8,885 nucleotides of DNA. It comes from a virus. Lineage: Duplodnaviria > Heunggongvirae > Uroviricota > Caudoviricetes. Below, one piece after another: positions 1-8,885 of the stretch (its first letter is position 1; the number at the start of each line of letters is the position of its first letter). The stretch lies in the IMG/VR virus record IMGVR_UViG_2609460067_000009; one strand, written 5' to 3'. The translations under genes were made by a program, and so were the position numbers. The notes below the pieces were generated by a model, which was given only the letters and a program-made list of their open reading frames with translations, was not told the DNA's origin and did no database searches.

Positions 1-48
1 TCCATGCGGTGATTTCCCTGAGTATGTCAGCCATTGAATGCCTCCCGG

Positions 49-345
49 TTACTCGTTCGTGTAAATCACGCCCAGTCGTGCAGCCAGACGTTCCAGTTTT
101 TTCTGTTTGTGGAAGTCAATCAGCCGGTCCATCCCCTGAAGGCGCAGTTGCTCTGTCATGATTTCCACGTCTGCCAGCTCTGCCGCGAGGTCACTTTCGC
201 TGCCCTGTCCGTTCAGGTTGCGGGCGGCACTGGCCGCCAGTTCAGCGGCCTCTTCTGCCAGTTTCAGGGCCTGTGCGTCCGGCCCGAAACGCTGCAGGGC
301 CAGACGGTAGAGGGCGGTGCGGGTGAGTTCGGTGTTTCGTGTCAT
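49..345 (-). CDS. MazG-like all-alpha nucleotide pyrophosphohydrolase domain protein
   Basis: 98-aa ORF. EExxE motif (LAEEAAELAAS) followed by ExxD (LAAELADVEIM), the signature pair of MazG/HisE-type NTP pyrophosphatases. Last gene of the co-directional minus-strand cluster. Assignment is from motif recall, not a search. Confidence 0.5.
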   Translation of the reverse strand: MTRNTELTRTALYRLALQRFGPDAQALKLAEEAAELAASAARNLNGQGSESDLAAELADVEIMTEQLRLQGMDRLIDFHKQKKLERLAARLGVIYTNE

Positions 346-354
346 GCCGCGCCC

Positions 355-627
355 TCAGTGCTTCCGGCTGACGGTGATGTGCAGGCCGCCTTCTGCAGTG
401 GTTTCCATCCGGTACGGCACCTCATGCTCTGCCGTGTGGGTGAGTGTGTTCATCAGTACCTGCAGGGCAGCCTCCTTTCCGTTGGTCGCCACAATGGCCT
501 GTGTGGCCATGCTGATTAGCGCCGTCAGGACGTGCTTCACATCGGTGAGGTCGCGGCATTCACACTCGTTGACATAGTGTTCAACAAGGGTTCGGGTGCG
601 CTGTCGTGCTTCCTGTGGGGTAATCAT
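355..627 (-). CDS. hypothetical phage protein
   Basis: 90-aa ORF. Its start overlaps the stop of the upstream zinc-ribbon gene by 4 bp (ATGA, 624-627), consistent with translational coupling. It ends 10 bp before the next gene. Confidence 0.5.
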   Translation of the reverse strand: MITPQEARQRTRTLVEHYVNECECRDLTDVKHVLTALISMATQAIVATNGKEAALQVLMNTLTHTAEHEVPYRMETTAEGGLHITVSRKH

Positions 628-818
628 TGCGAGTCCTCCCTGTCAGGGCGGGAGAATTCCATGACGGGCACGTCTGCCGAAAAATGCTGGCTGCAGTACG
701 GGCAGACCAGGGTGACGCGTACCGCAGGGATGTGGTATTTACCGGACATCACGGCGATGGCGCTGTGAAAACGCAGGGCTGTTATATCCCTCTCGCACTG
801 AATACATTTAAATATCAT
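624..818 (-). CDS. small zinc-ribbon protein (CxxC...CxxC)
   Basis: 64-aa ORF with two CxxC pairs (CIQC and CPYC, about 30 residues apart). Strong GAGGAG Shine-Dalgarno 9 nt upstream of the ATG (minus strand, 833-828). Confidence 0.55.
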   Translation of the reverse strand: MIFKCIQCERDITALRFHSAIAVMSGKYHIPAVRVTLVCPYCSQHFSADVPVMEFSRPDREDSQ

Positions 819-915
819 GATTTAATTCTCCTCTGTTTCCGGCGTGCAGAAGCCCGCGGCGCTGACGTCGGAATAAAAAAGAAAATGTTTTTATTAAATA
901 ATTAACGTGGTGTGT

Positions 916-1446
916 TTACTGCACATCCTGCTCAAAAGGAATTATTGAAAAATCCTCAATGTCGCTTTTAATGGAAATACCGGGAATATTTTTCACGGCC
1001 TCTTTTTCATTCAGGATAGCGTCTTTATTTATTTCCTCTTTTACACGAATAAAGCGCTCAAGCCCCAGACGTCTCAGTAATTCAATAACATTATCCGCCC
1101 CACGGATACTGACTGATGGCGGACGGTTTCGCCACTGCACCTCGCCGGTGGTGAGGTTAGCGAACTTCACCTTCCCGTTGCCGGTCAGTTCATCACGGTG
1201 TGCCTCACACCATGTCTGAATACCGGACTGCAGTTCGGCCATGCGTTTTTTCAGGCTCTCGGTGAGCGGGGCATAACGTGCGGTGATATCGCCAATGGCG
1301 TCATTCATTTCTGTTTCAGCCCTGACCAGTTCACGTTGTGCGTCACCGAGTAGTCTGATTCCCTCAATGACCTCTTCACGTGTCCCCGGCACCCAGAGTG
1401 CTGCTGCGGCCTTGATACGTTTTGCACCTTTTGTACTTTTTGCCAT
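916..1446 (-). CDS. gam: host-nuclease inhibitor protein Gam (Mu Gam family)
   Basis: 176-aa ORF with blocks I recognise from Mu Gam: N-terminal MAK..KRIK.AAA, ETEMNDAI, WCEA.RDELT, PPSVSIRG, GL.RFIR.K.EINK.AIL and C-terminal EDFSIIPFEQ. GGAG ribosome-binding site upstream. Confidence 0.9.
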   Translation of the reverse strand: MAKSTKGAKRIKAAAALWVPGTREEVIEGIRLLGDAQRELVRAETEMNDAIGDITARYAPLTESLKKRMAELQSGIQTWCEAHRDELTGNGKVKFANLTTGEVQWRNRPPSVSIRGADNVIELLRRLGLERFIRVKEEINKDAILNEKEAVKNIPGISIKSDIEDFSIIPFEQDVQ

Positions 1447-1473
1447 TTTTTATGATTTCTCCAGTTGTGCTGA

Positions 1474-1743
1474 TTACCACAAAGATTCCGGCCACACGAC
1501 GCGACAGCCGTGCAGTTCGAAAACGCCCTGACGGAAATATCCCCTGTGGTCATGTCCGGTATACAGATAACAGGCCTTTCCCTGCTCAAGCATGCGCATG
1601 CAATGCGCACTCCGGGAAACGCGGATGACAGGTTTGTTACCCCTGATGGTGATGCTCTGTACATCCGTGTTCGTCGCCTTAAGCGCCATAATGGCTGACT
1701 GCACTTTGCTGATTTGCTGGTTGATACCTGTGGTGGATTTCAT
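1474..1743 (-). CDS. hypothetical small protein (Kil-equivalent position between B and gam)
   Basis: 89-aa ORF starting 2 nt after the B stop, with an AAAGGGG ribosome-binding site. Contains a Cys/His cluster (C..H..C...H.H...H.C). Function is not recognisable from sequence. Confidence 0.5.
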   Translation of the reverse strand: MKSTTGINQQISKVQSAIMALKATNTDVQSITIRGNKPVIRVSRSAHCMRMLEQGKACYLYTGHDHRGYFRQGVFELHGCRVVWPESLW

Positions 1744-1745
1744 TA

Positions 1746-2912
1746 TTAAACCCCTTTGACAACGTCAGCGTTGACCTGTGGAACCCCGATTTCAGCGGCC
1801 AGATTCATGGCGGCTATTACCAGGTTACTGACGGCCAGCGGATACAGCAGGCTGACCATATTTTTACGGTGACTTCCCGGATTGCTCAGGCGGGCACGTA
1901 TGGCATCCACTGCACCGGCGTCCATAATGTCCGTCAGCTGTTTACCGGCCCGTTGCAGTTTGAACGTCAGAAATTCTTCAAGGTTATTGTCCAGAGGCAG
2001 AAGTTCGACCACCTCACAGCGCTGAACGACTTCACGGACTTCCATATTGCGTTCAGACAGTTTTGTCGCCAGTTCCGGCTGGCCAATCAGCACGATGGAC
2101 AGCAGTTTTTTGAAACCGGACTCCAGCTCAAAAAAGCGTTTGAGGTGTTTCAGTGTCGGAATGGGCAGACTGTGGGCCTCCTCAATCACCAGAACGTGGC
2201 TGAACCCCGCCTGGCTGCTGTCTTTCAGGACGCGATGCAACTGGCGAAAACGGGCGTCCTGACTGCGTCTGATGCTTTCCAGTGGTGCGATGGTACTGAT
2301 AATGGCTTCGGCAATAGCTGCTGCCTTCAGGGTTTTCCCTTTCACATCGTTGTCTTCCATAGCGATGATGTATGGCTCGATAACAATTACCGGCGCATTC
2401 TCGCGGTTGATACGTTCAGTCAGGTCGCGGCGCAGCGTGGATTTACCCGCACCGGACTCACCGATGACGGCCATAAACCCACCATGACGGGCTGTCTGGT
2501 ACAGCGCCTCACGCACGTAGCGAATGTCCGGGGTGGTGAACACATCATCAGAACCCTGCATGGCTTCGTCGGCGAACGGGTCACGGAAAAGACCAAACGC
2601 TTTTTTGGTTGCTGGAAATAACACCTGTTTTTTGAGTAACATATTCTCTTCCTCACTGAGGCTCGTTTTATCTGTGGTACCCGCTGTACGGGGCGTGGCC
2701 GCGCCCTGTACAGCATCAAAACTCTTCGTTGTATCAATCCCCTGACTTTCCAGCCAGGACGCAAGACGCCGGCGCACTTCTCCGGGGCTGGTGCGGGGCC
2801 ACGCGTTATGATTCACAATCTGGGCCAGCGTGGCCTCAGAAACATCGACAGCTCTCGCCACCACCGCCTGTGGAATACGGGCCTCTTTCAGTTGCTGCTT
2901 CAGTACCAGCAT
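1746..2912 (-). CDS. transposition ATPase B (AAA+ / ExeA-TniB-like), N-terminal HTH
   Basis: Walker A GESGAGKST and Walker B VLVIEEAH. N-terminal HTH-like segment (IPQAVVARAVDVSEATLAQIV). Start placed at the ATG at 2912, which is preceded by GAGGAGG overlapping the transposase TGA stop. The ORF-track start at 2951 would overlap the transposase by 29 nt. Confidence 0.85.
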   Translation of the reverse strand: MLVLKQQLKEARIPQAVVARAVDVSEATLAQIVNHNAWPRTSPGEVRRRLASWLESQGIDTTKSFDAVQGAATPRTAGTTDKTSLSEEENMLLKKQVLFPATKKAFGLFRDPFADEAMQGSDDVFTTPDIRYVREALYQTARHGGFMAVIGESGAGKSTLRRDLTERINRENAPVIVIEPYIIAMEDNDVKGKTLKAAAIAEAIISTIAPLESIRRSQDARFRQLHRVLKDSSQAGFSHVLVIEEAHSLPIPTLKHLKRFFELESGFKKLLSIVLIGQPELATKLSERNMEVREVVQRCEVVELLPLDNNLEEFLTFKLQRAGKQLTDIMDAGAVDAIRARLSNPGSHRKNMVSLLYPLAVSNLVIAAMNLAAEIGVPQVNADVVKGV

Positions 2913-2922
2913 GTTTCCCTCC

Positions 2923-4542
2923 TCAGTTGCCGTTAACAATGCTGATAACACTGCTGCGGGCCGGTGTGGTCAGCGTGGCCATGACTTCATCCAGTGCGGC
3001 TTCCGGTACGCCGTCCGGGTACTGTGCCGTTAACTGGCGGTAATGTTCCGGCGTCCAGGTAAGGCCGTCGGCGCTGAACTTATCGCGCAGGGCTTTCGCG
3101 GCCTCCACATGAGTCATGGGACGTTGTTCAGTGCGCGGCCCGCGTACGTCAGAGGCCTGACCACGCTTCGGCATATAGGCCGGAAGTGTGGTGTCGTCGA
3201 TATGTTTATACGGGTCAAGCCGCCCGCCGAACGGCAGCGCCTTCGCCTTGCGTGCGGCGGCTGCATCTGCGGCGTTGTCTGTACCGGTAACCAGCGCTTC
3301 GGTTTCTTTTGCCGCCATCTGTGCCGGGGTTTCCGGCAGGGCTTTGTAACTTTCGCCAAATACCGCCGCGCCTTCAGCAAAGCCAAACTCGTTCTTTCTG
3401 ACCTCTTCGACCAGGAAGAACGTCTCGTGGCCGTCCTCACCGGTCAGAACCACCTGTGCCACATCGCTGCGCCATGGGTTACGGGTAATCATCAGTTTTT
3501 CACCAACCAGTACGCCCGGTACCGTTGATACGTCAAATTCAGTGCCCCGGAACGAGACACGAAGTTTTGGCGTGACTTTGCGGAGTTCTGGTGCCGCCAC
3601 AGCCAGTTCACGACATACCTCAACGGAAGGCGCTTTTTTCAGCTGCTCAGCAGTAATCTTCAGCCAGATATCCGTGCGGGTTTTACCGTGGCGGCTGTGA
3701 ACAGCCGTGGCGTTAAAGTGGCTGCGCCATTTCGCGGCCAGCGCGTTGAGTTCTTCCAGACTGTGAACCGGCCGGAACTTCAGACCCGGCTCCAGCTTGC
3801 GTTCGATAATGTCACGCGCCTTTTCCACCTGTCCGGTGGCGCGGGCGTTATGCGGCTTGTGCGCTATCAGGTCGATGCCCAGTGAGCGGCACATGTTTTT
3901 CGTCATACCCGCGGTGTTTGCCGAGCCGGGGTCGAGATAGAGTATTTTCGGCACGCCGTGCAGCACGTCTGCGCCGCCACGCTCCTGCATGGCGTTGATA
4001 AGCACAGAACACAGGTTCTCACCTGATTCCGCGCCCGTCACATACTCAACGTAAATCCAGCCGCTGGCATGGTCGGTAATCTCGTAACTCCACACGCGGT
4101 CACTGGCGATACGGGCAAGGTTAGCGGGCTTGTTCTTGTAGAACTTCGCGCTGTCCATCACCTGCAGCCCTTTATGTCCATTGCTCAGGTAGTAAAGCGT
4201 GCAGAGTGAGGCGTCAATCTGCCAGACATGATTGGGATGCAGACTGGCCACTTCGGTATGTGGTGCAGGGGCATCCAGTTGTTCCGGGTGCAGGCCATAG
4301 TTACGCAGAGCACGGCTGATGGCATCTTCAGACAACGGGAAAAACTCACTGGTGGTTTCATCTGTTCTGCCTGCGGTGATAAAGCCGTTAGCCCGCAGGG
4401 TTTCCACTGCATCTGCGATGGAATAGAGACGCTTACCGTTCTTGCGGGTGGCCTCACGCAGTGTGGCAGATATCAGCGCGGCTTCGTCGCGGGTCAGGGC
4501 GCTGCGCCCGGCATCGGCGCGTTTTTTGCGTTTATCAGTCAC
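2923..4542 (-). CDS. DDE transposase (transposable-phage A protein, retroviral-integrase-like DD35E core)
   Basis: Large ORF immediately upstream of the AAA+ ATPase. Candidate catalytic residues in VWQIDAS or ITDHASGW, LYLDPGSANT and GQVEKA, with the last two about 36 residues apart. Start is ambiguous: GTG at 4542 overlaps the upstream stop as GTGACTGA and is favoured; the ORF-track start at 4647 is a TTG that would overlap the upstream gene by about 110 nt. Confidence 0.85.
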   Translation of the reverse strand: MTDKRKKRADAGRSALTRDEAALISATLREATRKNGKRLYSIADAVETLRANGFITAGRTDETTSEFFPLSEDAISRALRNYGLHPEQLDAPAPHTEVASLHPNHVWQIDASLCTLYYLSNGHKGLQVMDSAKFYKNKPANLARIASDRVWSYEITDHASGWIYVEYVTGAESGENLCSVLINAMQERGGADVLHGVPKILYLDPGSANTAGMTKNMCRSLGIDLIAHKPHNARATGQVEKARDIIERKLEPGLKFRPVHSLEELNALAAKWRSHFNATAVHSRHGKTRTDIWLKITAEQLKKAPSVEVCRELAVAAPELRKVTPKLRVSFRGTEFDVSTVPGVLVGEKLMITRNPWRSDVAQVVLTGEDGHETFFLVEEVRKNEFGFAEGAAVFGESYKALPETPAQMAAKETEALVTGTDNAADAAAARKAKALPFGGRLDPYKHIDDTTLPAYMPKRGQASDVRGPRTEQRPMTHVEAAKALRDKFSADGLTWTPEHYRQLTAQYPDGVPEAALDEVMATLTTPARSSVISIVNGN

Positions 4543-5401
4543 AGATGCCTGTTGGCTCGTCCGGCAGGTCAAATGTGGAGCGCAGGCTACGCGCTGTGCT
4601 TTCCAGTTGACAGACCAGGCCTGCCATGAAGTCTCTGGGGGTATCAATCATGTTTTCAGCACAATATGCGCACAGCGTCTCAAAAGCGCTGGACAGTCGG
4701 ACGGCGATAGCAGATTCCGCCTCAACCGCTAATGCTGTTACTTCCGCCCGCAGCTTCTTAACCTCCTCATCAGGCTCAGGCGGCTGAATACGGGATTTCT
4801 TCTCCAGTCTGGTGGAGAGTGAATCTATTTTTTCATTTTTGTCGGCGAGTACGCGCTGTTGTGCTGCGTTGGTTTCGCGCGCTTCGCGCAGGGCCTGACG
4901 CAATTCACGTACTGACATGCGATCAACGTCGTCAAGCGTCAGGCCGGCAACTGTGCCGCCGTCGGCCAATTCATCAAGTTCTTCATTATCCAGAACCATC
5001 AGGTCGTACAGTTTGGCTTTCCCCAAAACGCTCAACGTTGAGCGTTTTGTTGGCTCATCACCTTCTCCCAAAAACTTCATACTGGCTTGCATCATGCGGC
5101 GAGCAACTTGTGGTGCAAGTCCGAGTTCATTTTCTAAAATGTTTGTAAAATCACCGTGTGGCTCATTTTCTTTTAAGATGATCAGCCGCTTACCCGCTTC
5201 CAGCATAGATTCAGCACTCTGCGCCATATAAAAACGTGCTTCGTGAACAATGCGATCACGTTCATAAGGCAGTCCATCACCAAACTGCTGCATAATTTCC
5301 ATGCGATGCTGTGTCATAGCGTTCAAATTGACATTGATGTTATCTGACAGCGGAACCTCAACATTCAGTTCAGTGTTAACGGGTGATTTGGTGCGTCCCA
5401 T
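4535..5401 (-). CDS. hypothetical coiled-coil protein (early operon, between the regulators and the transposase)
   Basis: 288-aa ORF with an AAGGAG ribosome-binding site that overlaps the stop of the upstream gene. The central region is rich in charged heptad-like sequence (RELRQALREARETNAAQQRVLADKNEKIDSLSTRLEKK). No catalytic motif recognised. Confidence 0.6.
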   Translation of the reverse strand: MGRTKSPVNTELNVEVPLSDNINVNLNAMTQHRMEIMQQFGDGLPYERDRIVHEARFYMAQSAESMLEAGKRLIILKENEPHGDFTNILENELGLAPQVARRMMQASMKFLGEGDEPTKRSTLSVLGKAKLYDLMVLDNEELDELADGGTVAGLTLDDVDRMSVRELRQALREARETNAAQQRVLADKNEKIDSLSTRLEKKSRIQPPEPDEEVKKLRAEVTALAVEAESAIAVRLSSAFETLCAYCAENMIDTPRDFMAGLVCQLESTARSLRSTFDLPDEPTGICD

Positions 5402-5411
5402 TGATTACTCC

Positions 5412-5720
5412 TTACAAACGACTACCTGAAATAACTCGTTGGTTGATTTCGTTAATACGATCCTGTGCACGCGCCATCTCGTGACTGTGAGCCATGGCGA
5501 TCTGTAGTAACTGGATTCCCGGTGCGAAACGTCCGTTCTCTAATTTCATGGCCAGTCCCTCTTCAATAAGGGTATTAAGTGCTCGATTGATATTCGCCGG
5601 GGACTCCCCCAGGGCTGATGCCAGTTCACCGTTAGAAACACCGTTCAGAGCATGACCGCGTAGAGCTTTGAGTACACGTAGGATGCGGGTCCCAGAACTG
5701 GAAATATTTACTTTACTCAT
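5412..5720 (-). CDS. winged-helix/HTH DNA-binding protein
   Basis: About 102 aa from the ATG at 5720. HTH-like segment (VSNGELASALGESPANINRALNTLIEEGL). The longer ORF-track start at 5783 would overlap the upstream gene and is rejected. Confidence 0.6.
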   Translation of the reverse strand: MSKVNISSSGTRILRVLKALRGHALNGVSNGELASALGESPANINRALNTLIEEGLAMKLENGRFAPGIQLLQIAMAHSHEMARAQDRINEINQRVISGSRL

Positions 5721-5772
5721 GTCACATTTCCATTTTTGCAATATGTGATAACCTGTTGCATATGTGGAAAAT
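5721..5772. promoter_or_regulatory. intergenic region with direct repeats TTGCA(A)TATGTG (putative regulator-binding sites)
   Basis: TTGCAATATGTG at 5736-5747 and TTGCATATGTG at 5757-5767. The 10-mer ATATGTGATA at 5741-5750 recurs exactly at 5998-6007 in the divergent control region. Confidence 0.35.
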
Positions 5773-5961
5773 TTATGCCGCATTTGACGTGGGTTTTAAT
5801 CCCAGTTTTACGGCAATTTCATGGGCTTTGCCGTAACGAGCTTTGGTCTGTCCATTGAGAACACGATAGACCTCATTGCGGCTGTAGCCGTGTTCTTCGG
5901 CCCAGCGGGTAAACGTGATACCACGCTGACGGAAGAGATTTTTAACTTGTTCGGAAGTCAT
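5773..5961 (-). CDS. small HTH DNA-binding protein at the Ner/Cro-equivalent position (Ner-like)
   Basis: 62-aa ORF, first gene of the minus-strand early operon, divergent from the repressor-like gene. Excellent AAGGAGA ribosome-binding site 5 nt upstream. Pattern RG-x-T-F-x-x-W-A-x-E-x-G...IA-x-x-LG resembles the Ner/Nlp family as I recall it. Confidence 0.55.
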   Translation of the reverse strand: MTSEQVKNLFRQRGITFTRWAEEHGYSRNEVYRVLNGQTKARYGKAHEIAVKLGLKPTSNAA

Positions 5962-6047
5962 TGTTGTCTCCTTTGTTGATGCAATGATGTTTGTTTTATA
6001 TGTGATAGATTATGAGAACTATTGTTCTCATTGTCAATGAGGTTTAT
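5962..6047. promoter_or_regulatory. divergent early/repressor control region (overlapping promoters and operator)
   Basis: AT-rich spacer between divergently oriented genes. Contains candidate -35/-10 elements (TTGATG ... TATATG), the ATATGTGATA motif and a perfect 8-4-8 inverted repeat. Confidence 0.45.
6012..6031. repeat. perfect inverted repeat ATGAGAAC-TATT-GTTCTCAT (candidate operator)
   Basis: 8-bp arms are exact reverse complements with a 4-bp spacer. It sits between the divergent promoters and the likely repressor start. Confidence 0.6.
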
Positions 6048-6473
6048 GTGAATTTTGATTCTCTTTGCGCGTCGCGGTTCAAAGCTGAGCGTTCGCGGTT
6101 ATCACTCAAGCAGGCTGAAGTAGCAGCCCTTTGTGGCGTTTCAAGAGAAATGTGGGGGAAATATGAACGAGGGGTTGCTGTTCCCGGAGGTGAGTTACTT
6201 GCAGCCTTTGCAAGAATTGGGGCCAATGTACAGTTCATTCTTACCGGGGAGTCATCAGGTATAACTTTATCACGTGATGAAATGGAGTTACTGCAGCACT
6301 ACCGGCAGGCACCATTACAGGTCAAAGGTTCAGTTTTGTCGGCCTTGACTACTGGCTCCTCCAGAGAACGGGCGGAACAGGTTATTCATGGAGATGTTCT
6401 GGGGAATGTTATCAAAGGTAACGTAACCATAGGAACAGGTGGAATAATGAACAAAAATACCAAGAGAAGATGA
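6048..6473 (+). CDS. XRE-family HTH transcriptional repressor (c-like lysogeny repressor candidate)
   Basis: HTH_XRE-like segment (LSLKQAEVAALCGVSREMWGKYERG). Divergent from the early operon. Start placed at GTG 6048, which has a GAGG ribosome-binding site 5 nt upstream. The in-frame ATG at 6012 lacks a ribosome-binding site and lies inside the palindrome. No S24 peptidase domain is evident. Confidence 0.65.
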   Translation: MNFDSLCASRFKAERSRLSLKQAEVAALCGVSREMWGKYERGVAVPGGELLAAFARIGANVQFILTGESSGITLSRDEMELLQHYRQAPLQVKGSVLSALTTGSSRERAEQVIHGDVLGNVIKGNVTIGTGGIMNKNTKRR

Positions 6474-7456
6474 GTAAAGAGAAGCAAACAGTTAACGGGG
6501 ATGTGGGTAACGTTGTCAGCGGTGATGTTACCATTCATAACTATTCTGCTGACATACTTCCTTCGGCCCAGCAACCAATTTCGTTGCTGCAAAAACGCGA
6601 TTTACACAGATTGATGGATGAATTGGTTGATCTGGGGGAAAGTAAGCGCGAGCTATGGATGACGATCCACACGAAACTTAATACCAAAACAGTTAATGAA
6701 ATGACTGCGGCTGATTATCATGGTGCGGTTGAGATCCTTCAGAGATATGCACAACAGATCCAGAATATGAAGGACTGTAATCTTCTGGTCAGCAAAATAA
6801 TGGCGCTTACTGACCCTGGGTATCGTCTTGACCGTGACAGATACTGTCTGAAGCATTTCGGTACAACCCATCTTAAAGGCCTAGACAAAGAGCAGTTGCA
6901 GGCTGTGTTTGGTTATTTTGATGATCTGCTGAATATTCGTGATGAGAGTAAAACTCTATCACCTCCATCGGAAAGCGGTGCAAAATCAGTCGCAACTGTA
7001 CCAACCAGAAGCCGGAAGCCTCATGTAGTAGTGTTGGGGGGAGTGTTAGTTCTTGTAGCAATATTTTTCGTGGGAATGATTGTGTTCGCTGGTAAATGGG
7101 GAAATGCCAAAGCAGTAGCTTCTACTGAAACCAGCGTTTTTAACATTAAAACCAACGATAAAATAATAGAAGATTCCATCCCCGCACTGCGCAGCATGTT
7201 TCCAGGGTTAAATAAGTACTCAGATGATTTCCATTCGGTTTCAAGCTACAAGCAAAAAACGGGCTGGCATACCCTTAAATTTACTGTATCAGCAAAGGCA
7301 TCCGTCCCCGAAAATTATAGTGTTAAGGGCAAGGTTTGTTACATTAACATAAGCCCTGATGGTAGTTATGCTCGGGTTTTGACTGCTCCATGTCGTTCAC
7401 TGCTACTTGATCAGCAAAGCACTCCTGACAGTAAATACCGTTTTATTCTTAAATAG
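6470..7456 (+). CDS. single-pass membrane protein, unknown function (cargo gene 1 of repressor operon)
   Basis: 328-aa ORF whose ATG overlaps the repressor stop (ATGA at 6470-6473). One strongly hydrophobic segment (VVVLGGVLVLVAIFFVGMIVFAG) is preceded by basic residues (TRSRKPH). About 185 aa lie before it and about 120 aa after it, with two Cys in the latter. AT-rich codon usage unlike the transposition genes. Confidence 0.65.
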   Translation: MSKEKQTVNGDVGNVVSGDVTIHNYSADILPSAQQPISLLQKRDLHRLMDELVDLGESKRELWMTIHTKLNTKTVNEMTAADYHGAVEILQRYAQQIQNMKDCNLLVSKIMALTDPGYRLDRDRYCLKHFGTTHLKGLDKEQLQAVFGYFDDLLNIRDESKTLSPPSESGAKSVATVPTRSRKPHVVVLGGVLVLVAIFFVGMIVFAGKWGNAKAVASTETSVFNIKTNDKIIEDSIPALRSMFPGLNKYSDDFHSVSSYKQKTGWHTLKFTVSAKASVPENYSVKGKVCYINISPDGSYARVLTAPCRSLLLDQQSTPDSKYRFILK

Positions 7457-7546
7457 AAAATAACAGCTGAATTACCATGGGATCAGAAAAAAGACAAAGG
7501 CGGCATCATGCTGCGTTCTGAAATTTTAATGTAAAAGGTGATGAAC

Positions 7547-8128
7547 ATGGCAGGGATTCAGGTTATCGCAGGAAGTTTTCCTAAAGGGTGGGCAAGCATG
7601 GGGTTCGGTACCATCGTGTTTGCCAAAAAACCAAAACAAGGCTTTCCTGAAAATATTGTATTAAATCTGAAAGAAGAGCTTTTATCGATTGAACTTGCGG
7701 ATAGTGAAGAGGAAAGCCGTATAGGTAAGGCGGCAGGCGCAGGTTTGCTTGGTGGATTAATCTTTGGTGGTGCAGGGTTGGTCATTGGAGGTTTGCTTGG
7801 TGCGGCGGACAAGACGAAAAAAACTATCACTTTTAAGGCAATGTTTACGGGAAATAGGTTACTTCTGGCTAAAACAGATTCAAAAACTTTTGTAAAACTT
7901 CAGTCAATTGCTGCTGATAATGCCCATAACGCATCTGTAATCAACATGAAGCAAACTAACAGGGGCGATGTTTCTTCTCGTAAACAACTAACAGAAAATC
8001 CACAGCAGCAAGACTTACCTGCGCCCGCTACAACAGTAAAAATGACTGCCAAAGATAAGTTAGAATCGGCTCTTGGGCTGGGAATCATCGTTATAGCTGT
8101 TTGGGCAATAATACACTTCTTTTTTTAG
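7547..8128 (+). CDS. glycine-zipper membrane protein, unknown function (cargo gene 2)
   Basis: About 193 aa from the ATG at 7547 (AGGTG ribosome-binding site 6 nt upstream; the ORF-track start at 7538 is a GTG). Glycine-zipper hydrophobic segment GAGLLGGLIFGGAGLVIGGLLG with GxxxG repeats, plus a C-terminal hydrophobic helix (LGLGIIVIAVWAIIHFFF). Confidence 0.6.
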   Translation: MAGIQVIAGSFPKGWASMGFGTIVFAKKPKQGFPENIVLNLKEELLSIELADSEEESRIGKAAGAGLLGGLIFGGAGLVIGGLLGAADKTKKTITFKAMFTGNRLLLAKTDSKTFVKLQSIAADNAHNASVINMKQTNRGDVSSRKQLTENPQQQDLPAPATTVKMTAKDKLESALGLGIIVIAVWAIIHFFF

Positions 8129-8130
8129 TG

Positions 8131-8154
8131 CAGCCCTTCAGGGCTGTTTCTGTT
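8131..8154 (+). terminator. rho-independent terminator (hairpin plus T-tract)
   Basis: CAGCCC-TTCA-GGGCTG stem-loop immediately followed by TTTCTGTT, 3 nt after the stop of the glycine-zipper gene. Confidence 0.5.
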
Positions 8155-8165
8155 CAGGAGGTATC

Positions 8166-8642
8166 TTAAGGATTATCCGGGGCGTTTTCCTGTTTGCCGT
8201 ACTTCGGAGACGAACAACATTCTGTTGGCTGACCGGTGAGTTTACGTAACTCCTTCATGAGCAGCTCCTGATCGTAAACTGTCATCAGTGCCGCAATGGT
8301 GGCATGCAGTGCATCGGGCAGTATCCAGGGTTGCCGGCCCGTGGGGCATATAACATCCAGCAGCTCATTCGTCCGACAGATACGCTCCTCGCCGTATGAC
8401 AACAGGCCCTGTCCCGTGTATTCCTCCAGCCTGATCACTGTGCCACCCCGTGGCTTCTGCCAGGTCGTCAGATCTTCGCCATTCATACGGCGCTCATTCT
8501 CCACGTCAGCAGCATCGACAATGACGCTGTTTCCGAGTTCCTGTTTCACCATCTCTTCTATCCGCGCCAGTACGTAACTTTTACCGCTGCCCACAGGACC
8601 GGACACAGTGACAGTGATGACCGGATTCAGTGTGTGCGTCAT
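8166..8642 (-). CDS. small P-loop NTPase (Walker A), unknown function
   Basis: 158-aa ORF with a GAGGAG ribosome-binding site 8 nt upstream. Walker A GPVGSGKS near the N-terminus and a possible Walker B VIVDAAD. Convergent with the cargo operon; GC-richer than the cargo genes. Confidence 0.6.
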   Translation of the reverse strand: MTHTLNPVITVTVSGPVGSGKSYVLARIEEMVKQELGNSVIVDAADVENERRMNGEDLTTWQKPRGGTVIRLEEYTGQGLLSYGEERICRTNELLDVICPTGRQPWILPDALHATIAALMTVYDQELLMKELRKLTGQPTECCSSPKYGKQENAPDNP

Positions 8643-8772
8643 ATCGTATTCTCCTCTGTGAATAATTCATCGTTTATCCTGCACATCCCGTATCCCCGGC
8701 TCTCTTAACGCGCTTTAAAATCCTTCGCGCCCTGTATTTGTGATGCTGTCTCCACCAGATAAGGAGACACAC

Positions 8773-8885
8773 ATGAAAAACCTGAAAAAATTCATTCCCC
8801 CTGTTAAAAAACCTCGCCTCAGCGGCTGGCTGCTGACCTCAGTGCTGTTGCTGGGCACCATCGCTCTGGTCTCACCACAGCAGCT
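8773..8885 (+). CDS. partial CDS (5' end only): protein with N-terminal signal-anchor or signal peptide
   Basis: AAGGAGA ribosome-binding site 6 nt upstream of the ATG. Basic N-terminus (MKNLKKFIPPVKKPR) followed by a hydrophobic stretch (LSGWLLTSVLLLGTIALV). Runs off the window edge. Confidence 0.4.
   Translation, partial: MKNLKKFIPPVKKPRLSGWLLTSVLLLGTIALVSPQQ

Follow-up and report, generated by a model that had tools for sequence, protein, structure and literature searches.

Positions 8131-8885 of the window (by which we mean the whole stretch of 8,885 nucleotides analysed here) are very probably backbone sequence from inside a BcepMu-like (Bcepmuvirus) transposable prophage carried by E. 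coli, at the junction where its lysogeny-control and accessory genes give way to its late genes. They contain a small uncharacterised phage gene encoding a P-loop protein, a control region for the late (lysis) genes and the first part of a putative holin gene (Table 1). The family to which the P-loop protein belongs is rare, phage-restricted, under selection and unusually modular; apart from this, the region is unremarkable, in a prophage that is common and has been sequenced before.

Table 1. Coordinates of the features discussed in the text, in window positions
Feature	Position	Strand	Evidence
Intrinsic-terminator-like hairpin	8130..8157 (stem 8130-8147, T-rich tail)	+	sole terminator-like site in 5700-8885
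158-aa soluble P-loop protein, short phrog_3787 allele	8166..8642	-	ORF, profile match, dN/dS
Allele/mosaic junction	8166..8187	-	blastn boundaries
Conserved domain (candidate mini P-loop), codons 1-76	8415..8642	-	distant matches, alignments, AF2
Walker A GPVGSGKS, codons 15-22	8577..8600	-	sequence reading and conservation
Divergent control region between P-loop gene and holin gene, 130 bp	8643..8772	.	promoter scan, conservation
Conserved late-promoter-like block	8705..8768	+	conservation across four genera
First 37 codons of 116-aa putative holin	8773..8885	+	phrog_1528, gp21 identity

Element type and prophage ends

A domain scan of the window recovers an rve (Tn552-type) transposase, its AAA_22/ExeA-type partner ATPase, Phage_Mu_Gam and a DUF3102 protein, together with an IclR-type HTH, a small Ner-like HTH and a plus-strand HTH repressor; an Rfam scan of the window detected no RNA family. 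The Bcepmuvirus PhiKM covers 75% of the window at 95.8% identity, and matches to the window are present in 645 of 5,426 complete E. coli genomes. A prophage in E. coli strain AR_0015 is identical to the window over 4546-8885 and 99.6% identical over 1-4545, and it carries genes for Mor and gp16/GemA at its left end. The gene order is that of a bottom-strand early cluster followed by lysogeny control, a holin-endolysin-Rz cassette and P2-like morphogenesis genes.

The original prediction had asked whether the two genes past the hairpin belong to the element or to flanking host DNA, and had proposed that the ends be located by their terminal repeats and target-site duplication against an uninterrupted locus. 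We mapped them in the identical prophage of AR_0015, a strain other than that of the window's contig, by aligning both junctions to the uninterrupted K-12 locus. The element measures 37,566 bp, lies between grxA and ybjC and has TG...CA termini (TGATTAG...GCGCATCA, ending GCATCA), its left end reading TGATTAGACTTGAGATAAATG... and its right end ...CATTTATCGCGCGGCGCATCA at the junctions with K-12 sequence. At position 14 from both termini is found GATAAATG, of which the right end has a second copy. The insertion is flanked by a 6-bp target-site duplication, TGAAGG, which is single in the empty K-12 grxA/ybjC site; insertion sites differ between strains. Base 1 of the window is located 2,260 bp inside the left end, the right end is about 26 kb beyond base 8885, and 8131-8885 maps 10.6-11.35 kb into the element. 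Thus, no transposable-phage end is visible within the window, as had been noted, and the location of both ends elsewhere settles the question of host versus element: both genes lie well inside the prophage.

The local signs on which that earlier reading drew are real. The hairpin is present, GC content rises past it from 0.40-0.45 (6450-8100) to 0.51-0.57 (8100-8700), and gene orientation flips, such that the P-loop gene and the plus-strand genes upstream of it converge. However, the original prediction assumed an end layout like that of phage Mu, with the repressor beside an end, and was misled by the difference in layout between Mu and BcepMu. In BcepMu-type prophages lysogeny control is interior and the lysis cassette comes next (PMC2771037 and the BcepMu record); as the repressor and cargo are not near an end, shifts of GC and orientation there mark the boundaries of modules and not of the element. 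The GC content after 8100 is an ordinary value for the phage backbone (0.52-0.63 over 1-4800) and no host signature. The hairpin itself (GCAGCCC-TTCA-GGGCTGT, then TTCTGTT) would close the rightward unit of the repressor and the 328-aa and 196-aa proteins; situated between convergent genes, it could stop leftward transcripts too.

The P-loop gene and its product

The 158-aa ORF with its Walker A motif is real, and a homology search of the kind proposed for it identifies the product as a member of phrog_3787 (E 2.1e-107), with the match limited to positions 1-157 of the 242 in the profile. The corresponding 242-aa protein of PhiKM is 92% identical to it over 157 aa. The gene is carried by 570 of the 5,426 E. 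coli genomes, in about 134 cases as the short allele (108 genomes at >=99% identity) and in about 435 as a 247-aa allele, and further length forms of 141 and 182 aa, as well as partial ORFs, occur at the locus. Homology of the 247-aa allele (PhiKM, CU568-3) to the window stops at 8177-8187, the blastn boundaries being 8178 for PhiKM, 8177 for CU568-3 and 8147 for DEF2. The last of these has a 158-aa allele, 95% identical, which has its last codons (..PDNP) and stop in common with the window and is followed by a Dam methylase. In the window, an immunity/cargo module of its own starts just left of the stop of the P-loop gene. We considered the possibility that insertion of this cargo had made the 158-aa form, and dropped it on finding the same 3' end in DEF2 beside other neighbours.

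Substitution ratios indicate that the gene is under purifying selection. Its dN/dS against three other alleles is 0.19-0.33, which argues for a real coding gene, and a pair of short alleles with 24 differing sites gives a dN/dS of 0.20, even over both halves of the gene. These values bear directly on a reading of the 158-aa ORF as a non-functional, decaying remnant of the 247-aa gene that was cut by module exchange. The ORF does span only the first 157 of the 242 profile positions, and the locus is rich in length variants and fragments (141, 158, 182 and 247 aa, and the partial ORFs), both of which speak for decay. Yet the two short alleles are independent and equally constrained in both halves, over 100 genomes carry the ORF intact, and the apparent functional unit, the N-terminal 75 residues, naturally stands alone elsewhere, while the C-terminal modules appear interchangeable across the family (see below). 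We therefore regard decay as improbable.

The distribution of the gene is independent of that of the immunity/cargo module of the window (6014 to about 8165), as the latter is present in only 127 genomes against 570 for the gene. In E. coli the P-loop gene is always divergent from the holin gene, and prophages of Citrobacter braakii and Salmonella diarizonae have the same divergent arrangement followed by Dam; a related-locus search with a narrower P-loop alignment returned two loci only. A tblastn search of 50,697 phage records recovered the phrog_3787-type family in PhiKM only, with no homologue in BcepMu, and Klebsiella phage KP12 likewise is without the gene, which is thus a non-universal accessory gene. 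The original prediction had suggested that the NTPase might be part of the same accessory island as the upstream membrane cargo. Such a moron island, in which the P-loop protein would work together with the 328-aa and 196-aa membrane proteins, draws on the adjacency of the genes and the hairpin common to both sides, and on the similar counts of genomes that carry a short allele of >=99% identity (108) and of genomes that carry the membrane-protein module (97-127). We consider it quite improbable: the 570 genomes with the P-loop gene far exceed those with the module, the 158-aa allele of DEF2 lies beside a Dam methylase without the membrane genes, and the Citrobacter, Salmonella, PhiKM and CU568-3 loci have the gene in its place next to the holin gene, among other genes that differ widely. 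Moreover, the genes of the supposed island are on opposite strands and convergent.

The conserved part of the protein is small. An exhaustive HMMER scan of 1.84 billion clustered-protein representatives returned 54 at E <=0.001, nearly all of which match query residues 1-75 only; some of these homologues have 200-364 aa and C-terminal parts that are unrelated, and the rest are free-standing proteins of 70-90 aa. Across an alignment of 33 sequences, reaching down to about 26% identity, G20, K21, S22 and E50 are invariant and G15, G18, I28 and E74 are retained in at least 90%. The invariance of G20, K21 and S22 over such distances means that the Walker A is no chance match; it has the form GxxxxGK[ST] after a strand, as in the P-loop superfamily, and is conserved in the homologues. 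E74 closes a hydrophobic strand (hhhxE), and by its position this strand may be equivalent to Walker B. A sub-clade (P0035, P0056, P0059) has GKN in place of GKS, which argues against obligatory hydrolysis in all members of the family.

An AF2 model of the 158-aa protein, built with 33 sequences, has a pLDDT of 64 (about 70 in the N-terminal part) and a pTM of 0.46. It predicts strand 8-14, the Walker A, helix 21-39, a second strand (40-42 in the model, 40-46 in the layout proposed for the conserved module), strand 68-75 and then three helices, with an ER..W motif in the loop between the second and third strands and E74 at the end of the last strand. A complete alpha/beta core of at least five strands with a significant fold match was not found for this protein; the 247-aa allele, for which the alignment was shallow, gave a model of pLDDT 43 that could not be used. 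With Foldseek the sole match in BFVD at E <=0.001 is a 72-aa member of the family, and the weaker ones include a handful of other P-loop-like phage proteins, likewise small. Two profiles searched against PDB sequences gave matches confined to the Walker A and about 25 residues, and profile matches to ABC domains, kinases and designed 'phosphate-loop' proteins cover only the Walker A and the next helix/strand. Pfam, NCBIfam and PADLOC scans of the 158-aa protein yielded sub-threshold Walker A matches only, the best of the anti-phage defence models in PADLOC scoring E 0.007 on the Walker A alone. A literature search with the RefSeq accessions of the protein and with phrog_3787 found nothing. A small nucleotide kinase was considered and dropped, as the protein lacks both a substrate-binding region and a lid, and its conserved unit has only 75 aa.

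The protein had resisted placement in any kinase or ATPase family when it was first read, and it still does so: comparisons with the ABC and KAP families fail and only the uncharacterised phrog_3787 fits. RefSeq labels it 'ABC transporter ATPase' or 'KAP family NTPase' in hundreds of E. coli genomes, and both names are wrong. That it is a conventional member of either family, as these product names and the weak alignment of residues 2-58 with profiles of ABC nucleotide-binding domains would have it, is very improbable, because the alignments are limited to the Walker A and the following helix/strand, and 158 aa is far too short for both. The ABC matches score 12-20 bits, where Pfam ABC_tran has a cut-off of 25 and the NCBIfam models have cut-offs of 260-870, and the Q-loop, the LSGGQ signature and the H-loop are absent from the 158 residues. 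KAP NTPases have a large P-loop domain into which transmembrane helices are inserted, whereas the 158 aa contain no hydrophobic segment and give no Pfam KAP match.

Comparison of the homologues indicates that only the N-terminal 75 or so residues are conserved and that the C-terminal modules are interchangeable across the family. These C-terminal parts match other small uncharacterised phage families, and the same slot in KP12 holds an unannotated ORF that consists of one such module by itself, 41% identical (E 2e-11) to the corresponding part of family members. Stand-alone members of the N-terminal kind are encoded upstream of ERF/YqaJ in a Pseudomonas prophage, beside SSB, between HNH and terminase genes and on a TubZ-encoding phage contig; the ERF/YqaJ, SSB and HNH/terminase surroundings are of the early or DNA-metabolism type.

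Holin gene and late control region

The ORF that begins at 8773, and not at 8774 or later, leaves the window after 37 codons. Complete, its product has 116 aa and hydrophobic segments at 16-36, 37-58 and 89-116. It had been described as a signal-anchored protein; instead, it matches the phrog_1528 holins (E 5.5e-55), is 52% identical to BcepMu gp21 and lies directly 5' of the endolysin gene, the SLT gene beginning 3 nt past its stop. It can thus be considered a putative holin and the first gene of a lysis cassette (holin, SLT transglycosylase, lipoprotein, membrane protein), with the qualification that the holin role of gp21 in BcepMu is itself a prediction (PMC2628397). Of the suggestion that both genes were further cargo, the part on the P-loop gene is half right, as the gene is accessory and missing from BcepMu and KP12 but lies outside the island of the upstream membrane proteins; the membrane ORF is instead a core gene, that of the putative holin.

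Beyond the window, the AR_0015 prophage continues with the SLT transglycosylase, the lipoprotein, the membrane protein, DUF3486, terminase/portal-type and P2-like head and tail genes. The same genes are found at another chromosomal site, near metG beside IS1, in strain 510016, and some E. coli have up to three copies per genome. It is hardly credible, then, that the P-loop and holin genes are flanking host chromosome with the prophage ending at the terminator near 8130, for although GC rises and orientation flips there and the window has no phage end, the ends map elsewhere with a 6-bp duplication against the empty site, an SLT lysin, terminase, head and tail genes come next, the pair recurs in PhiKM, at differing chromosomal sites and in multiple copies, and the raised GC equals that of the phage backbone.

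The P-loop and holin genes are separated by a control region in which a scan of 8643-8772 on both strands found no sigma-70 consensus promoter. Within it is a block made up of TTAACGCGCTTTAAAATCC (8705-8723), 13 nt, TTTGTGATGCTGTCTCC (8737-8753), 7 nt and AAGGAGAC. An inverted repeat, GTCTCC/GGAGAC (8748-8753 and 8763-8768), extends over the ribosome-binding site of the holin gene, the Shine-Dalgarno sequence of which is AAGGAG at 8761-8766. The block is retained in E. coli, Klebsiella KP12, Citrobacter braakii and Salmonella diarizonae, with flanks that show no blastn similarity. By analogy with Mu biology, it may be a late promoter dependent on an activator of the Mor/C type, served by the Mor-family protein encoded at the left end.

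Proposed mechanism and comparison with known systems

These observations suggest the following scheme. The terminator would close the rightward repressor operon, and the leftward accessory gene would give rise to a soluble 158-aa protein, with a minimal Walker A nucleotide-binding module in its N-terminal 75 or so residues and a helical C-terminal part that would be one of many exchangeable modules. The 130-bp divergent control region would carry the conserved activator-dependent late promoter; a phage activator of the Mor/C type would turn on the block and thereby late expression of the holin, whose gene would open the lysis and morphogenesis operon.

The motif conservation suggests that the P-loop module binds, and perhaps hydrolyses, ATP/GTP or a phosphate ligand. 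It probably acts as an oligomer, because three strands cannot complete a P-loop core, and the variable C-terminal modules could be adaptors that steer it to different partners. The gene is presumably dispensable for lytic growth, since BcepMu and KP12 are without it. Its product would be an accessory factor that acts early or in the lysogen, and on account of neighbours such as Dam, SSB and recombinases its role would most likely be in DNA metabolism or in conflict between phage and host. Nucleotide binding and such a role in conflict or DNA metabolism, taken jointly, we put forward as a tentative possibility, with the odds against it. More doubtful, though conceivable, is that the module of about 75 residues is a natural, autonomous, phage-specific 'mini P-loop' which, as an oligomer, alone or fused to shuffled modules, would act as an effector in phage-host or phage-phage conflict. 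In favor of this proposal, the Walker A, E50 and E74 are conserved to about 25% identity and stand-alone members occur in unrelated phages; in addition, the C-terminal modules also occur alone, and known families, folds and defence models provide no match. To our knowledge the smallest P-loop NTPases have about 150-170 residues, and a mini P-loop would be under half that.

Among known systems, BcepMu itself has the same overall plan. Its lysogeny-control genes 16 and 17 lie where the two strand clusters meet, ahead of the lysis cassette (PMC2771037); gp17 is given as the repressor, gp21 as the holin and gp22 as the endolysin, and TG...CA termini are noted for BcepMu-related elements (PMC2628397); the gp16-gp22 region (NC_005882) is that of Summer et al. 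2004 as cited in both papers (PMC2771037, PMC2628397). The BcepMu record runs from Mor (gp01) and GemA through gp08 (ExeA-like), transposase gp09 and gp10 to HTH gp16 and repressor gp17, and onward through membrane protein gp18, gp19, gp20, holin gp21 and SLT endolysin gp22 to Rz/Rz1 and terminase. Like the phage of the window, it thus has a leftward cluster from Mor to transposase, a repressor followed by a membrane protein, holin, SLT and Rz genes, and TG...CA termini; the repressor of the window is 39% identical to gp17. Unlike the window, it has gp18-gp20 all on the plus strand before the holin gene and no phrog_3787 homologue. What marks the enterobacterial lineage is its leftward P-loop gene. 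PhiKM (PQ738613) is nearer still in sequence, matching 1-4550 at 99.96% and 8178-8885 at 96%, with the same arrangement of P-loop and holin genes, which is also that of prophages such as CU568-3. It differs in its 242-aa allele and in having a Dam methylase and small genes between the Ner-like and P-loop genes, where the window, at 6014-8177, has the repressor and two membrane proteins.

Phage Mu, with c, ner, A and B at its left end, shares with the phage of the window a repressor, a Ner-like protein, a transposase with its partner ATPase, Gam, GemA and Mor. The Mu repressor adjoins attL, whereas here the repressor is about 8.5 kb inside and the early cluster is inverted. The BcepMu-type transposase, moreover, is of the Tn552/rve type, unlike that of Mu (PMC2771037).

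For the P-loop protein, the closest known systems include kinase-type P-loop NTPases such as 1odf and the thymidylate, APS and uridine kinases. Minimal P-loop proteins made by design (the 'phosphate-loop protein' 6c2u/6c2v and the de novo ATPase 9jix) have in common with it a short beta-(P-loop)-alpha unit, with weak matches (E 0.001-0.006); short designed units of this kind bind phosphate ligands and ssDNA (bioRxiv 10.1101/2020.07.30.228619; PMC10119929). Such a likeness is expected of any idealised Walker A segment, and so is no evidence of a function in common; the designed proteins are consensus-built laboratory constructs, unlike the natural phage module. Nevertheless, if it is true that a 75-residue Walker A module alone binds nucleotide, the phage family would be a natural counterpart of these designed minimal proteins, with a bearing on the origins of NTPases.

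The low-GC immunity and cargo module

The low-GC module carrying the repressor is a replaceable cassette. It was found in 127 of 5,426 E. coli genomes, and its place is occupied by a Dam methylase and other genes in Escherichia phage PhiKM, in the related prophages of E. coli strains CU568-3 and DEF2, and in Citrobacter and Salmonella relatives. The first of its two membrane-protein genes, encoding a 328-aa product, overlaps the stop codon of the repressor, with which it is probably co-transcribed. Residues 19-147 of this protein are similar to Flk, a flagellar regulator (NF007987, E 2.9e-12; the score of 46.6 bits is below the cut-off of 353), and a single strong TM segment spans residues 182-211; we consider it a candidate lysogenic-conversion gene. 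The 196-aa protein, whose gene is the last one and immediately precedes the terminator, combines a glycine-rich hydrophobic segment (residues 66-90) with a C-terminal tail anchor (174-196).

Features discussed in this section, with positions in the window unless another sequence is named
Feature	Position	Strand	Remarks
Immunity/cargo module	6014-8165		Low GC; repressor and two membrane proteins
328-aa ORF	6470-7456	+	phrog_10002 match
196-aa ORF	7538-8128	+	phrog_12025
Unannotated KP12 ORF	L013 (Klebsiella phage KP12) about 8591-8913	-	Adjoins holin
Inverted tail-fibre and assembly genes	L004 4794-6564		Just inside right end of AR_0015 prophage

The surroundings of the holin gene

In Klebsiella phage KP12 the slot that the P-loop gene takes in E. 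coli is held by an unannotated ORF devoid of the P-loop domain. This ORF matches the C-terminal module of P0044 and P0059, two members of the P-loop protein family (41% identity, E 2e-11). The Shine-Dalgarno sequence of the holin gene is flanked by a GTCTCC / GGAGAC inverted repeat (window 8748-8768), which is kept across four genera and may exert translational control over the holin.

The 4545/4546 junction and the right end

At 4545/4546 the window lacks 209 bp present in the prophage of E. coli AR_0015 (locus L003, 24546-24754), a gap that costs the rve transposase gene its start and initial ~49 codons and the DUF3102 gene its final ~20 codons. Window sequence to the left of this point matches PhiKM at 99.96% identity, and that to the right matches AR_0015 at 100%. 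Of the complete E. coli genomes listed, the eight that match best all lack an intact version of the junction. Either it arose naturally, as a mosaic or a deletion, in which case the prophage would be transposition-defective, or it is a product of chimeric assembly.

The inverted tail-fibre and assembly genes of the AR_0015 prophage adjoin a gene for a 'recombinase family protein', and together they look like an invertible tail-fibre segment of the Gin/Hin type. Such a segment is missing from BcepMu itself, according to PMC2771037.
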